Translations under genes and position numbers: made by a program
Part shown: positions 95 to 5,371 of the stretch, piece after piece
Position numbering within the stretch: the stretch's first letter is position 1
Layout: every line of letters starts with the position of its first letter
DNA from: a virus
Virus genome (UHGV): UHGV-1723398
Reading direction: 5' to 3' (one strand)
DNA: 10,323 nt
The notes under the pieces: generated by a model
What the model was told of the DNA's origin: nothing
The model's input: the letters and a program-made list of their open reading frames with translations, nothing else
Database searches by the model: none

Positions 95-205
95 ATCACC
101 CGAGCCTTTCAGAAAGTTGAGCCTGAGAACTGCCGTATATGGTGGCGACCATCTCGGGGCGGCTTTTCTGTGAGACAGGCTCACTTTCTAAAAGGTAAAG
201 ACGCT

Positions 206-724
206 ATGAATCATCAATTGGCTAATCTCGATTTCCGGGACATGGTGGTTGTTTCTGGTGATCGCGTGATCACAACCTCCCGCAAGGTAGCAGCTTACTT
301 CGACAAGCAGCATCACCACATCATTCAGAAAATCGAAAAGCTAGACTGTTCGGATGAATTTCTAACCAGCAACTTTTCGCGGGTTACCTATGAACACAAG
401 GGTAATCAGTATGTTGAATATGAAATTTCCAAAGACGGTGCGATGTACATCATCATGTCGTTTACCGGCAAAAAAGCTGCCGCCATCAAAGAGGCGTTTA
501 TCAAAGCATTTAATTGGATGCGTGACAGGCTGATGGAGATGGCTCACTCATACCAAAGAGAGCACAACGAGTTAATGCTGGAGTTCATGAAGGAAAAGGA
601 TGTTGCCAGTATGTCAGGACGCTTGCTGAACCGCTGGGGCAGGATCAAAAAACCTCAACTCATAGCAAGAATCGAAAGGCTTGAGCAGCAGGCGCAAATA
701 TCGATCCCCGGACTGCCAAAGTGA
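206..724 (+). CDS. rha: Rha-family phage regulatory protein (Phage_pRha / ORF6N-type domain), 172 aa
   Basis: Translation MNHQLANLDFRDMVVVSGDRVITTSRKVAAYFDKQHHHIIQKIEKL...MYIIMSFTGKKAAAIKEAFIKAFNWM has the conserved layout of Rha-family N-terminal domains as I recall them. ATG at 206 is preceded by AAGGT (192-196); the ORF track's start at 170 is a GTG with no Shine-Dalgarno. Slightly lower GC than the structural genes, consistent with a moron. Confidence 0.7.
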   Translation: MNHQLANLDFRDMVVVSGDRVITTSRKVAAYFDKQHHHIIQKIEKLDCSDEFLTSNFSRVTYEHKGNQYVEYEISKDGAMYIIMSFTGKKAAAIKEAFIKAFNWMRDRLMEMAHSYQREHNELMLEFMKEKDVASMSGRLLNRWGRIKKPQLIARIERLEQQAQISIPGLPK

Positions 725-732
725 CCATTCCA

Positions 733-754
733 AAGCCCATCTACGGGTGGGCTT
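733..754 (+). other. GC-rich hairpin 8 nt downstream of the rha stop codon (possible weak terminator or mRNA 3' stabiliser)
   Basis: Perfect 7-bp inverted repeat AAGCCCA (733-739) / TGGGCTT (748-754) with 8-nt loop; no U-tract follows (GATAATG), so not a canonical intrinsic terminator. Confidence 0.3.
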
Positions 755-1029
755 GATAATGAAACCGTGATTTACATCCCCACAATCCGGGTATGTAAAA
801 GATAGTTCAGGCGAGAACAGATTTAACTAAGTCTGTGCACCACCAGTTGCGGCAGTACCACGAAACAACCCAAGCCAGTAAGTGGGGAAATAACACTGGC
901 AGCCACTGAAAGATGAACCTCCAGCCTTAAGGCAAAAAAGATTCTTTGTGGTGGCGGACTGATGGAAAGACATCGGTTATTGCAGAGACCATTCAATGAG
1001 TGGTCTCGACAATGGCTTATACCCTACAC

Positions 1030-1055
1030 GGGATAACTTAACTGATATCCCTTTT
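1030..1055 (+). other. Short hairpin followed by TTTT just upstream of the 80-aa ORF (weak terminator-like or regulatory structure)
   Basis: GGGATA (1030-1035) / TATCCC (1046-1051) perfect 6-bp inverted repeat, 10-nt loop, then TTTT (1052-1055). The stem is short and AT-containing, so stability is doubtful. Confidence 0.25.
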
Positions 1056-1076
1056 AACGGATAAACGGAGCCAACA

Positions 1077-1319
1077 ATGGCAGAGATTATTCCCATGACT
1101 GAAGAACAGAAATTCCAGTTAGAGATTTACAAACTGGTCATGAACCAGAACGCAGCCGCAGAAGAAGCATTTCAATTCATTGGCACTGACGAACTGAAGC
1201 TTGAGCTATTCAAAATTCACTTCCAGTCAGGTGGCGCTAATTCGGATATCACGACCCGCACAATCGAAGCGGTGCGTAAATCGAAGGAAGCGTTAGACCT
1301 GTTCACTACCGGAGCATAA
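1077..1319 (+). CDS. Hypothetical small protein (80 aa) conserved upstream of the small terminase gene in P22-like phages (ORF80-like)
   Basis: Intact ORF with a GGAG Shine-Dalgarno 8 nt upstream of the ATG; same strand and position as the small ORF I recall preceding gene 3 in P22-like genomes. Predicted acidic and helical; no recognisable catalytic motif. Confidence 0.5.
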   Translation: MAEIIPMTEEQKFQLEIYKLVMNQNAAAEEAFQFIGTDELKLELFKIHFQSGGANSDITTRTIEAVRKSKEALDLFTTGA

Positions 1320-1398
1320 ACATGGCAACTCAAGGTTTCGACAACCCATCCAAATTCCGCGATGAATGGGATAAGCAAGCAGAAGGGAAATAATCAAT

Positions 1399-1824
1399 AT
1401 GGCGACTGAGAAAAAGAAAGGTGGTCGCCCCTCTGATTATATGCCGGAGGTGGCTAATGACATTTGCGCATTGCTTTCCTCCGGTGAGAGTCTGCGCAAA
1501 GTTTGCGAACGCCCAGGAATGCCGAGCAAAACATCAGTTTTTCGCTGGCTGGCTGAACATCAGGAGTTTCGTGACCAGTACGCGAAGGCAACAGAGACTC
1601 GGGCCGACTCTATTTTCGAAGAGATATTCGAAATTGCTGACGACGTAATCCCTGATGCCGCCGAGGTGGCAAAGGCAAGACTTCGCGTTGATACCCGCAA
1701 ATGGGCGCTGGCCAGAATGAATCCCCGTAAGTATGGCGACAAGGTAACTAATGAGCTTGTCGGCAAAGACGGCGGCGCAATCCAGATTGAAACATCACCG
1801 ATGAGCACTCTATTCGGAAAATGA
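1399..1824 (+). CDS. Terminase small subunit (Sf6 gp1 / P22 gp3 functional equivalent), 141 aa
   Basis: N-terminus MATEKKKGGRPSDYMPEVANDICALLSSGESLRKVCERPGMPSKTSVFRWL matches the helix-turn-helix DNA-binding region of Sf6-type small terminases as I recall it. Stop codon overlaps the large terminase start (ATGA at 1821-1824), indicating translational coupling. Confidence 0.85.
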   Translation: MATEKKKGGRPSDYMPEVANDICALLSSGESLRKVCERPGMPSKTSVFRWLAEHQEFRDQYAKATETRADSIFEEIFEIADDVIPDAAEVAKARLRVDTRKWALARMNPRKYGDKVTNELVGKDGGAIQIETSPMSTLFGK

Positions 1825-3242
1825 CCTCGATTAATCCTATCTTTGAACCGTTCATTGAGGCGCATCGCTACAAAGTCGCCAAAGGCGGTCGAGGTAGCGG
1901 TAAGATCGGTAAGTCATGGGCAATTGCGAGGCTGCTTGTTGAAGCGGCGCGTCGGCAGCCGGTGCGTATTCTCTGCGCTCGTGAACTGCAAAACAGTATC
2001 AGCGATTCGGTAATCCGGTTGCTTGAAGACACCATAGAGCGGGAAGGGTATTCGGCTGAGTTTGAAATTCAGCGTTCAATGATTCGTCATCTCGGAACGA
2101 ATGCTGAATTCATGTTCTACGGCATCAAAAACAACCCTACGAAGATTAAATCGCTCGAAGGTATTGATATCTGCTGGGTGGAAGAAGCGGAGGCGGTAAC
2201 GAAGGAATCGTGGGATATTCTGATACCAACCATCCGCAAGCCGTTTTCCGAAATATGGGTGAGCTTCAACCCGAAAAACATCCTCGACGATACCTATCAG
2301 CGATTCGTCGTAAACCCTCCTGATGATATTTGCCTGCTGACGGTGAACTACACCGACAACCCGCACTTTCCTGAAGTCCTCCGTCTGGAGATGGAAGAGT
2401 GCAAACGCAGAAATCCGACACTGTATCGTCACATCTGGCTTGGTGAGCCAGTAAGCGCAAGTGATATGGCAATCATCAAACGTGAATGGCTTGAAGCCGC
2501 AACCGATGCGCACAAGAAACTCGGATGGAAAGCGAAAGGCGCTGTTGTCTCTGCGCATGACCCATCAGATACAGGGCCAGATGCTAAAGGTTATGCATCG
2601 CGTCACGGTTCGGTAGTTAAGCGCATTGCCGAAGGTCTGCTGATGGATATCAACGAGGGTGCTGACTGGGCTACTTCGCTGGCGATTGAAGACGGCGCTG
2701 ACCACTACCTGTGGGATGGTGATGGTGTTGGTGCCGGGCTACGCAGACAGACAACGGAAGCGTTCTCCGGCAAGAAAATCACCGCCACGATGTTCAAGGG
2801 CAGCGAATCGCCATTCGATGAAGATGCACCATATCAGGCCGGAGCATGGGCTGATGAAGTCGTACAGGGCGACAACGTTCGCACTATTGGTGATGTGTTC
2901 CGCAATAAGCGAGCGCAATTCTATTACGCGCTGGCTGACAGGCTGTATCTGACATATCGGGCGGTTGTCCACGGTGAGTATGCAGACCCCGACGACATGC
3001 TGAGCTTCGACAAAGAAGCGATAGGCGAGAAGATGCTGGAGAAGCTGTTTGCAGAACTGACGCAGATTCAGCGCAAATTCAATAACAACGGGAAGCTGGA
3101 GCTAATGACTAAGGTCGAAATGAAGCAGAAGCTCGGTATTCCATCTCCTAACCTGGCTGATGCGCTGATGATGTGTATGCATTGCCCGGCATTGGTCCGC
3201 GAAGAAACAGAAATATACGTTCCCTCATCCTCCGGTTGGTAA
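1821..3242 (+). CDS. Terminase large subunit (ATPase plus nuclease), 473 aa
   Basis: N-terminal P-loop-like segment VAKGGRGSGKIGKS, a Walker B-like hydrophobic stretch ending in acidic residues (IDICWVEEAEA), and an acidic C-terminal half (DPSDTGPD, DGDGVGAG) consistent with an RNase H-like nuclease domain. Size and position match P22/Sf6 large terminases. Confidence 0.9.
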   Translation: MTSINPIFEPFIEAHRYKVAKGGRGSGKIGKSWAIARLLVEAARRQPVRILCARELQNSISDSVIRLLEDTIEREGYSAEFEIQRSMIRHLGTNAEFMFYGIKNNPTKIKSLEGIDICWVEEAEAVTKESWDILIPTIRKPFSEIWVSFNPKNILDDTYQRFVVNPPDDICLLTVNYTDNPHFPEVLRLEMEECKRRNPTLYRHIWLGEPVSASDMAIIKREWLEAATDAHKKLGWKAKGAVVSAHDPSDTGPDAKGYASRHGSVVKRIAEGLLMDINEGADWATSLAIEDGADHYLWDGDGVGAGLRRQTTEAFSGKKITATMFKGSESPFDEDAPYQAGAWADEVVQGDNVRTIGDVFRNKRAQFYYALADRLYLTYRAVVHGEYADPDDMLSFDKEAIGEKMLEKLFAELTQIQRKFNNNGKLELMTKVEMKQKLGIPSPNLADALMMCMHCPALVREETEIYVPSSSGW

Positions 3243-3244
3243 AC

Positions 3245-5371
3245 ATGGCAGAGACATTAGAGAAAAAACATGAGCGGATCATGCTCAGGTTTGACCGCGC
3301 CTATTCTCCACAGAAGGAAGTGCGCGAAAAGTGCATTGAAGCTACGAGGTTTGCTCGTGTCCCCGGAGGTCAATGGGAAGGAGCAACGGCGGCTGGAACT
3401 AAGCTTGATGAGCAGTTCGAGAAGTATCCTAAGTTTGAAATCAATAAGGTAGCAACTGAACTTAACCGCATCATTGCAGAATACCGCAATAATAGAATCA
3501 CCGTTAAGTTTCGTCCTGGTGACAGAGAGGCAAGCGAAGAGTTAGCCAATAAATTAAATGGTCTGTTCCGTGCTGACTACGAAGAAACTGATGGCGGTGA
3601 GGCTTGCGATAATGCATTTGACGACGCTGCTACTGGTGGTTTCGGTTGCTTCCGTTTGACGTCGATGCTGGTCAATGAATACGACCCCATGGACGATCGT
3701 CAGCGTATTGCTATTGAACCAATATACGACCCGTCGCGCTCTGTGTGGTTTGACCCTGACGCTAAGAAGTACGACAAATCTGACGCGTTGTGGGCGTTCT
3801 GCATGTATTCGTTGTCACCTGAAAAATATGAGGCTGAATACGGAAAGAAACCTCCTGCTTCTCTGGATGTAACGTCTATGACCAGTTGGGAATATGACTG
3901 GTTTGATGAAGATGTTATTTACATAGCGAAGTATTACGAAGTTCGTAAAGAGTCTGTTGACGTCATCAGTTATCGACATCCAATCACTGGAGAGATTGCA
4001 ACATACGACAGTGATCAGGTTGAAGATATTGAAGATGAACTGGCAATAGCTGGATTTCATGAAGTGGCAAGGCGCTCAGTGAGGCGCCGTCGTGTGTATG
4101 TATCCGTAGTGGATGGTGATGGTTTCCTTGAGAAACCTCGACGTATTCCTGGTGAACATATCCCCCTCATCCCGGTTTATGGAAAACGCTGGTTCATTGA
4201 TGACATTGAGCGTGTCGAAGGACATATTGCAAAAGCAATGGATCCACAGCGTTTGTATAACCTTCAGGTATCAATGCTGGCTGATACTGCAGCACAAGAC
4301 CCCGGTCAGATCCCTATAGTTGGCATGGAGCAAATTCGTGGACTTGAGAAGCACTGGGAGGCTCGCAACAAGAAAAGACCAGCGTTCTTGCCGTTGCGCG
4401 AAGTGAGAGATAAATCTGGCAACATCATCGCTGGAGCTACCCCGGCAGGATATACACAGCCCGCGGTTATGAATCAGGCATTGGCTGCATTACTACAGCA
4501 AACCAGTGCTGATATTCAGGAGGTTACAGGCGGCAGTCAGGCCATGCAGCAGATGCCAAGTAATATTGCTCAGGAAACGGTTAACAACTTGATGAACAGA
4601 GCAGATATGGCTTCGTTTATCTATCTGGACAATATGGCGAAAAGTCTTAAACGCGCTGGTGAAGTATGGCTGTCAATGGCGCGTGAAGTGTACGGTTCAG
4701 AACGTGAAGTGCGCATCGTTAACGAAGATGGAAGTGATGATATCGCTGTCCTGAGCGCACAGGTTGTTGACAGGCAAACAGGGGCTGTTGTTGCGTTAAA
4801 TGACCTTTCTGTCGGTCGATACGATGTGACGGTTGATGTTGGACCAAGCTACACAGCACGACGTGATGCAACGGTTTCTGTACTGACAAATGTCCTTAGC
4901 TCTATGCTTCCAACAGACCCAATGCGCCCGGCAATTCAGGGTATTATTCTGGACAATATCGATGGCGAAGGCCTTGATGACTTCAAAGAGTACAACCGAA
5001 ACCAACTGCTGATATCTGGTATTGCAAAACCACGCAATGAGAAAGAGCAGCAGATTGTTCAACAGGCGCAAATGGCAGCACAAAGCCAGCCAAATCCTGA
5101 AATGGTTCTCGCTCAGGCGCAAATGGTAGCAGCGCAGGCAGAAGCGCAAAAAGCAACTAACGAAACTGCTCAAACTCAAATCAAAGCATTTACTGCCCAG
5201 CAGGATGCGATGGAGAGTCAGGCAAACACTGTCTATAAACTGGCCCAAGCCAGAAACATCGATGACAAAGCAGTGATGGAGGCAATACGCCTTCTGAAAG
5301 ATGTCTCCGAGTCACAACAACAGCAATTCCAGTCACCACCACAGTCTCCGGCAGACTTAATGCCGAGTTAA
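3245..5371 (+). CDS. Portal protein (P22 gp1 / Sf6 gp3 family), 708 aa
   Basis: ATG at 3245 lies 2 nt after the terminase stop and gives a 708-aa product, the size of P22-like portals; the ORF-track start at 3173 would overlap the terminase gene by 70 nt. C-terminal ~110 aa is a Q/A-rich helical low-complexity segment typical of the P22-type portal barrel. Confidence 0.9.
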   Translation: MAETLEKKHERIMLRFDRAYSPQKEVREKCIEATRFARVPGGQWEGATAAGTKLDEQFEKYPKFEINKVATELNRIIAEYRNNRITVKFRPGDREASEELANKLNGLFRADYEETDGGEACDNAFDDAATGGFGCFRLTSMLVNEYDPMDDRQRIAIEPIYDPSRSVWFDPDAKKYDKSDALWAFCMYSLSPEKYEAEYGKKPPASLDVTSMTSWEYDWFDEDVIYIAKYYEVRKESVDVISYRHPITGEIATYDSDQVEDIEDELAIAGFHEVARRSVRRRRVYVSVVDGDGFLEKPRRIPGEHIPLIPVYGKRWFIDDIERVEGHIAKAMDPQRLYNLQVSMLADTAAQDPGQIPIVGMEQIRGLEKHWEARNKKRPAFLPLREVRDKSGNIIAGATPAGYTQPAVMNQALAALLQQTSADIQEVTGGSQAMQQMPSNIAQETVNNLMNRADMASFIYLDNMAKSLKRAGEVWLSMAREVYGSEREVRIVNEDGSDDIAVLSAQVVDRQTGAVVALNDLSVGRYDVTVDVGPSYTARRDATVSVLTNVLSSMLPTDPMRPAIQGIILDNIDGEGLDDFKEYNRNQLLISGIAKPRNEKEQQIVQQAQMAAQSQPNPEMVLAQAQMVAAQAEAQKATNETAQTQIKAFTAQQDAMESQANTVYKLAQARNIDDKAVMEAIRLLKDVSESQQQQFQSPPQSPADLMPS

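Follow-up and report, generated by a model that had tools for sequence, protein, structure and literature searches.

Conservation, predicted fold and genomic context of Orf80 (DUF2560), a small late-region protein of P22-like phages

P22 and several of its relatives carry a short gene between their lysis genes and the small terminase gene, whose product is known as Orf80 in P22, HkbM in HK620, gp67 in Sf6 and gp69 in epsilon34. These proteins belong to Pfam family DUF2560 and to PHROG 571 ('unknown function'), and their genes share the same synteny: lysis genes, a Rha or KilA-N gene, a leader, orf80, in some cases orf59c, and then the small terminase gene. Both P22 orf80 and the Pfam family have already been catalogued as 'function unknown', and in this respect the gene described here is an ordinary find. 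The original prediction for this locus had likewise left its function blank, and a literature search bore this out: we found no function assignment for DUF2560, and the papers that mention the family name it in tables only. ORF80 of the Stx2 phage Sp5, an unrelated protein of 2,793 aa, was rejected as a version of the same protein.

P22 has been described without orf80. A working strain carries a cassette in place of orf25, pid and orf80 (bioRxiv 10.1101/2023.08.15.553423), and phage in which orf25-orf80 was replaced with a kanamycin-resistance cassette are viable, lyse and lysogenise, with a minimal effect of the replacement on lysogeny and resistance both in vitro and in mice (PMC11016777). 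Orf80 is dispensable for the growth and lysogeny of P22. Flanked by orf25 and orf80 is the moron pid, whose transcription runs counter to theirs (PMC3573128, PMC8835761).

Tad2-like (PF11195) and Acb2/Tad1 (PF24729) proteins resemble DUF2560 proteins in being small, non-enzymatic-looking and non-essential and in being encoded in the same gap between the lysis and terminase genes. Unlike them, DUF2560 proteins are predicted to be all-alpha and appear near-universal in their phage group rather than patchy, and we found no likeness in sequence or fold to these or other characterised anti-defence families. Ppi of the SaPIs and Rpp of the PICIs are small helical proteins that bind and retarget terminase small subunits; they are satellite-encoded and each is specific to one small-terminase type, whereas Orf80 is phage-encoded and stands unchanged beside at least three small-terminase types. 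The sequence upstream of orf80 also has described counterparts. Like lambdoid intrinsic terminators and the hairpins at moron boundaries, it has a GC-rich stem of 8-10 bp with a loop of 3-6 nt at the end of the preceding cassette; unlike the lambdoid intrinsic terminators, it has, in the E. coli/Salmonella/Shigella group, an invariant GAYAATG in place of the U-run. 'Boundary sequences' were reportedly proposed for HK620 by Clark et al. in 2001.

A gene under purifying selection in a P22-like late region

The stretch of DNA that we analysed (10,323 nt from virus genome UHGV-1723398, hereafter the window) is a P22-like late region, in which the small terminase gene is followed by the genes for the large terminase, portal, scaffold, coat and head-completion proteins. 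In the ORF list, orf80 starts with ATG and ends with a TAA stop at 1317-1319, and it sits on the late-operon strand, with the lysis cassette on one side and the packaging genes on the other (Table 1). It had been credited with a good ribosome-binding site (RBS), and its GGAG is indeed well placed; the RBS region (1060-1076) showed almost no polymorphism among 45 unique copies. The 80-aa protein matched the DUF2560 profile PF10834 with E=1.1e-43 (147.7 bits against a cut-off of 25), residues 5-76 aligning to profile positions 1-72 of 72, and matched PHROG 571 with E=2e-41. Its identity is 98.8% with P22 Orf80 and 100% with HK620 HkbM, epsilon34 gp69 and the Sf101 protein, and a tblastn search found homologues of orf80 in 178 phage records.

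Table 1. Features at and around orf80 in the window
Feature	Position	Strand	Evidence or remark
Rha-family regulator (Phage_pRha and ORF11CD3 domains)	170..724	+	Listed GTG at 170 is the first possible start; the real start may be downstream
First motif copy: hairpin AAGCCCATC-tacg-GGTGGGCTT (733-754) and GATAATG (755-761)	733..761	+	Just after the rha stop
Conserved structured non-coding leader, 236 nt; accessory-gene insertion hot spot	841..1076	+	Conservation, fold, inserts
Hairpin GAGACCATT-caatg-AGTGGTCTC (985-1007), then GACAATG (1008-1014)	985..1014	+	69 nt before the orf80 ATG
Second hairpin GGGATA-(10 nt)-TATCCC, then TTTT; weakly terminator-like	1030..1055	+	MFE fold
Shine-Dalgarno CGGAG (GGAG at 1067-1070)	1066..1070	+	6 nt 5' of the orf80 ATG
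CDS, 80-aa DUF2560 protein, orthologue of P22 Orf80 / HK620 HkbM / Sf6 gp67	1077..1319 (including stop)	+	ORF, Pfam, identity, selection, AlphaFold2
23-codon mini-ORF (MATQGFDNPSKFRDEWDKQAEGK), putative gene with its own GGAG	1322..1393	+	2 nt after the orf80 stop, 5 nt before the small-terminase ATG
Small terminase, Sf6 type	1399..1824	+	PF20901 Sf6_terminase, E=1.1e-44; PHROG 1482

Pairwise comparison with homologues of 64-74% identity gave dN/dS values of 0.11-0.15 (Nei-Gojobori), and comparison with P22 orf80 gave seven synonymous changes and one non-synonymous change. Across the 45 unique aligned copies, site variability was 0.003, 0.0003 and 0.045 at codon positions 1, 2 and 3, respectively. 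An identical protein was encoded by 86 fetched loci (from IMG/VR and genomes) in 77 distinct nucleotide versions, the differences between which were all synonymous, a pattern that is overstated in that the 86 loci were picked for protein identity. The conserved 80-aa protein of the original prediction is borne out by the profile match, the spread over phage records and the low dN/dS, and its placing where P22-like phages carry a small uncharacterised ORF before the small terminase gene agrees with P22 orf80, HK620 hkbM and Sf6 gene 67. The interval 1077-1319 is a true protein-coding gene, an orthologue of P22 orf80, and purifying selection on it is strong.

Orf80 is a 9.0-kDa protein with a pI of 4.7 and a net charge of about -5. 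AlphaFold2, supplied with a 51-sequence alignment reaching down to 26% identity, returned a confident four-helix bundle (pLDDT 93.7, pTM 0.82) with predicted helices at residues 9-20, 25-35, 39-51 and 58-77. Only L15, A27, A31, F34, F45 and A65 are nearly invariant among 51 diverse family members; all are core hydrophobic positions, and no catalytic-looking conserved polar residue was found in these 51 sequences. Because family-wide conservation falls on hydrophobic core residues, Orf80 is predicted not to be an enzyme, and because the protein is acidic, nucleic-acid binding is unlikely. Structure prediction had been suggested from the start as a way to a function; it delivered the confident model but no characterised relative. 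Sequence and profile searches of the PDB gave no match to Orf80, nor did searches with PADLOC and NCBIfam, and no informative structural or sequence relative of the fold came to light.

An exhaustive HMM search of 1.84 billion representative proteins recovered only 75 DUF2560 clusters at 50% identity, most of them stand-alone proteins of 75-100 aa, and Orf80, with its 80 aa and four helices, fits the description of a stand-alone, all-alpha family of about this size. The longer fused homologues P0099, P0118, P0122 and P0130 look like frameshift run-ons or chimeric assemblies and were rejected as uninformative on function. Fold and length are retained down to 26% identity, at which point the DNA can no longer be aligned. 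Since the family is small and narrow and its fold has no characterised relative, the function of Orf80 cannot be read from homology.

Between rha and orf80 lie 352 nt without a credible ORF. Minus-strand ORFs at 823-996 and 827-973 were rejected; they lack an RBS, and polymorphisms in the region are without 3-periodicity and keep G-U pairs on the + strand. Also rejected were plus-strand mini-ORFs of 24 codons (962-1036) and 22 codons (996-1064, orf25-like) and the AUG within GAYAAUG, all of which are broken by the Sf6 and P22 inserts and keep no consistent frame across loci. On the downstream side, the original prediction had placed orf80 directly upstream of the small terminase gene. It is upstream, but the two are not directly adjacent, being separated by a 79-nt spacer (1320-1398) that holds the 23-codon mini-ORF. 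This mini-ORF fills the slot of orf59c in P22 and hkbN in HK620, is dissimilar to both and gave only a weak DUF2740 match (E=0.064); it may serve as a relay for translational coupling or be a scar left by recombination. Apart from the occupant of this slot and the absence of the pid and gp66 inserts, the locus shows no substantive difference from those of P22, HK620 and Sf6. The same 79-nt spacer is also found before P22 gp3-type terminases.

The GC content is 0.453 for orf80, 0.458 for rha and 0.484 for the window. A consensus scan of the + strand from 600 to 1500 found no sigma-70 promoter, a terminator scan made no + strand call near orf80, a tRNA scan found none, and Rfam over 1-2000 at E<=1 gave two chance-level matches only. 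Elsewhere in the window, the listed GTG start (3173) of the portal ORF (3173-5371) overlaps the large terminase gene, and the real start is likely the ATG at 3245 (MAETLEKK...); this portal shares 99.6% identity with its counterpart in phage N7 but only ~32% with P22-type portals. The N-terminal part of the small terminase gene (1400-1750) is common to ~25 related loci, and its C-terminal end (from 1751 on) is common, together with the large terminase gene, to ~54. The small terminase gene seems to contain a mosaic joint that separates its DNA-binding portion from the portion in contact with the large terminase.

Association of orf80 with terminase and head modules

A BLAST comparison of the window with ~100 loci showed that a block from ~850 to 1319 is shared by ~80-92 of them, with coverage dropping to 33-45 loci to the left of 850 and to ~25 loci to the right of the orf80 stop. 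Mosaic breakpoints fall exactly at that stop codon, and in phage APC_JM3.2 the nucleotide identity spans orf80 and ends at the start of the small terminase gene. We found the identical Orf80 protein upstream of at least eight types of downstream junction and at least three types of small terminase. It is followed after 80 nt by a 141-aa Sf6-type small terminase, after 80 nt by a 162-aa P22 gp3-type small terminase, after 3 nt by an unclassified small terminase of 146 aa, after 30 nt by a 164-aa gp3-type small terminase or after 2 nt by orf59c and then the small terminase gene, and several further types have one to three extra genes. A Pfam search of the neighbours of DUF2560 genes found GP3_package, Sf6_terminase and Terminase_2.

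The same picture was obtained with distant members. Those of 26-45% identity occupy the same site, after the lysis cassette and with 0-4 small genes before the small terminase gene, and precede small terminases of the Terminase_2, Terminase_4 and Sf6 types; in all, five small-terminase types (four Pfam families and one unclassified) follow distant DUF2560 members. The portals encoded downstream of them belong to P22_portal, Phage_portal (HK97-like) and Phage_portal_3. We saw no co-variation of orf80 with one terminase family. What the members have in common is their setting, the slot between lysis cassette and small terminase gene in lambdoid phages and prophages of Enterobacterales, and all hosts named in DUF2560 records are Enterobacterales. 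By record counts, orf80 appears to be nearly universal, not patchy, in enterobacterial P22-like phages: among records of Salmonella phages, 91 have orf80 and 96 have a P22-type portal, the two lists not being matched per phage.

HK97, HK022 and their relatives have the leader and only codons 1-28 of orf80, which abut the gp74 HNH gene. In HK97 (locus L022, 2501-2638) and mEpX2 (L023, 2501-2638), the 28 codons lead into an ORF of 45 codons, and this ORF overlaps the beginning of the gp74 HNH endonuclease gene. Neither this truncation nor the P22 deletions fit a gene that is required for normal phage production. In three other loci, ST64T (L021, 4247-4633), L011 (4246-4632) and L106 (3248-3634), the gene right after DUF2560 encodes a protein of 128-129 aa with an HExxH motif (LVHECAHVAF); it had no Pfam match, and the motif suggests a small metalloprotease-like accessory protein.

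Taken together, the loci compared exclude a terminase-specific role for Orf80, which shows no tie to any one terminase or portal type. Since identical and divergent members alike stand beside many terminase and portal types and all hosts are Enterobacterales, the family follows host clade and genome position, not the packaging or head module. The suggestion that Orf80 could have a role in packaging initiation therefore finds no support: the identical protein precedes Sf6-type, gp3-type and unclassified 146-aa small terminases, and HK97-like phages keep only 28 codons of the gene. An important part in packaging is in essence contradicted by the P22 orf25-orf80 deletion as well, given that this phage is viable, lyses and lysogenises.

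A more generic role in packaging or assembly has more to recommend it. Orf80, as the product of the first morphogenetic gene, could be a non-essential aid to efficiency that is independent of terminase type, acting through a host DNA-binding factor, through the conserved ATPase/nuclease fold of the large terminase or by guarding the cut end of the concatemer. Members of as little as 26-35% identity still stand between lysis cassette and small terminase gene, with 0-4 small genes before the latter; in many loci just 1-4 nt separate the orf80 stop from the start codon that follows, a spacing suggestive of translation coupled to that of the packaging genes; and the location of orf80 3' of a terminator-like hairpin would have it transcribed with those genes. 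Such a helper would nevertheless have to work with unrelated small terminases and two large-terminase families while the protein stayed identical and mosaic breakpoints fell at its stop codon, and HK97-like phages have lost all but 28 codons of its gene. In addition, a portal search returned phages of Vibrio, Hamiltonella (APSE), Ralstonia and Sodalis, genera absent from the DUF2560 matches (a comparison of genus lists, not of individual phages), and the P22 deletion mutants are viable with a minimal phenotype. Purified P22 terminase (gp2 and gp3) and procapsids package DNA in vitro without Orf80, and Orf80 is not known as a P22 virion protein; both points also count against a packaging helper. 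We consider this role unlikely, though not negligibly so.

The leader and its hairpin-GAYAATG element

The leader upstream of orf80 is 93-97% identical in P22, HK620, Sf6, ST64T and HK97, and that of ST64T is as well conserved as the others though its DUF2560 protein is only 44% identical. Variability is 0.014 in the leader versus 0.045 at the third codon positions of orf80, and the + strand RNA folds with z = -4.6. At least part of the leader was found in 2552 of 5426 complete E. coli genomes, where it is never annotated, and Rfam has no family for the leader or for its hairpin element.

Within this region we recognised a motif that consists of a GC-rich stem of 8-10 bp with GAYAATG directly 3' of it. 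In the HK620 genome, only two of 13 GAYAATG sites have a hairpin, and they are the two equivalent ones (the chance expectation is 1.9% per site); across all loci, a hairpin precedes roughly half of the 306 + strand GAYAATG sites versus 1 of 95 on the - strand. Depending on the locus, the site 69 nt upstream of the ATG carries one of three hairpin alleles. In a count made with a script anchored on GAYAATG (a MAFFT alignment of the hairpins was out of structural register), each of the nine stem pairs occurred as at least two pair types, compensatory double changes among them; as the hairpins had been pre-selected as perfect stems, this covariation is suggestive and carries no formal test. Polymorphisms in hairpins of the window type keep pairing through G-U on the + strand only. 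In more divergent loci the corresponding site, 25-60 nt upstream of the start, is taken by an intrinsic terminator of canonical form, U-run included. The copy of the motif at 733-761 forms a separate conserved block of 49 nt in ST64T, HK97, L011 and L013. Further copies were seen at L011:3968, L013:3952, L014:3933, L105:2970, L020 ~3320 and L110:3511.

The motif coincides with mosaic joints, and the leader accepts inserts at two points: at ~975, the Phage_gp49_66 gene of Sf6 (gp66) and E. coli 6629, and at ~1035-1063, the P22 pid moron. The sub-block 998-1065 survives in lambda-like prophages of E. coli O157:H7 that lack orf80, as does the second hairpin at 1030-1055, where the terminator scan was silent. 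Candidate roles for the hairpin-GAYAATG element are those of a terminator remnant, of a site for mRNA processing or stability and of a recombination boundary; we infer, from comparison of the loci, that it may be a punctuation hairpin of terminator origin that closes the accessory cassettes. Such a hairpin would be read through by Q-modified polymerase, and orf80 would then be transcribed with the packaging genes.

The conservation of this structured leader brings up the idea that Orf80 regulates late gene expression, acting on late transcription, mRNA fate or translation (maybe by way of the hairpin-GAYAAUG leader) or on the lysis clock. The gene follows the lysis genes directly in the late operon, the leader and its strand-specific hairpin motif accompany it across lineages, and all examined phages with orf80 are lambdoid and have Q-type antitermination. 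An acidic protein with a net charge of about -5 would be a poor binder of RNA or DNA, however; Orf80 has no HTH-like basic recognition helix, no likeness to known regulators and no transmembrane segment with which to act on the holin, and the leader is also present without orf80 in O157 prophages and without full orf80 in HK97-like phages. We regard a regulatory role as decidedly improbable.

More doubtful still is the proposal, put forward at the outset, that orf80 may be another moron; in that case it would serve in lysogenic conversion, with its expression from the prophage benefiting the host. The gap is a known moron site (P22 pid and the Sf6 gp66/Phage_gp49_66 insert), and orf80 is very common in E. 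coli and Salmonella genomes. The gene itself has little of a moron about it: the consensus scan found no sigma-70 promoter, its strand and GC content are those of the late genes, it is not patchy by record counts, and the terminator-like hairpin lies 5' of it, not downstream, so that there is no promoter-terminator bracket. The remaining idea, that the block is a recombination linker or 'boundary sequence' between lysis-side and packaging-side modules and its protein of little import, could draw on the 93-100% identity of 850-1319 in phages with differing flanks and on breakpoints at the ends of the block and, in HK97-like phages, inside it, but appears largely refuted by the codon-position pattern, the low dN/dS and the retention of fold and length at 26% identity where the DNA is unalignable, and we give it hardly any credence.

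A possible host-directed role for Orf80

The gap that orf80 closes on its packaging side holds different genes in different phages: rha in this window, KilA-N and hkbL in HK620 and the Phage_gp49_66 gene in Sf6 (gp66) and E. coli 6629. In a Citrobacter prophage (L011), a Tad2-like protein is encoded directly 5' of DUF2560, and in a Serratia prophage (L105) a protein of the Acb2/Tad1-hairpin type is encoded two genes 5' of it. We considered and rejected an assignment of the Sf6 gp66/6629 gp49 family to Tad2/DUF2829; it is Phage_gp49_66, and the Tad2-like protein is a separate neighbour in L011. DUF2560 thus borders a hot spot in which recognised counter-defence families occur, and is itself far more constant than they are.

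We tentatively favour a role for Orf80 as a non-essential, late-expressed and host-directed binding protein of an accessory, fitness-enhancing or counter-defence type, a reading that we hold to be possible rather than probable. Orf80 would be made only late in infection, since no promoter was found and since, in all lineages examined, a terminator-like hairpin lies 5' of the gene; read-through of this hairpin should be confined to Q-modified polymerase. It would probably act stoichiometrically, by binding another macromolecule, and its target is more likely to be a host factor than a component of the phage packaging machinery, because DUF2560 follows the Enterobacterales across unrelated head and packaging modules. 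In this capacity it would enhance the fitness of the phage or serve against a host defence. A bolder version is that DUF2560 is a widespread host-directed late protein, which might, for example, neutralise a host system triggered by terminase, portal or packaging, and that it is gated by an undescribed, covarying hairpin-GAYAAUG RNA element that punctuates the hot spot between lysis and packaging genes; as a whole, we think this improbable.

Few unknowns of P22-like phages are as constant as this gene, which is also common among prophages of E. coli and Salmonella, and knowing what its product does would fill a gap in a model phage. What our analysis adds is the exclusion of a terminase-specific role, the distribution by host clade, a confident predicted fold without a characterised relative and the hairpin-GAYAATG element. 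Together with its insertion hot spot, this upstream element may be a more original lead than orf80 itself. For Orf80, the options have been narrowed to a real and constrained protein that is predicted to be a non-enzyme, is not specific to a terminase or head type and tracks the host clade; experiments are therefore pointed towards interactions with host factors or defences and away from packaging initiation.
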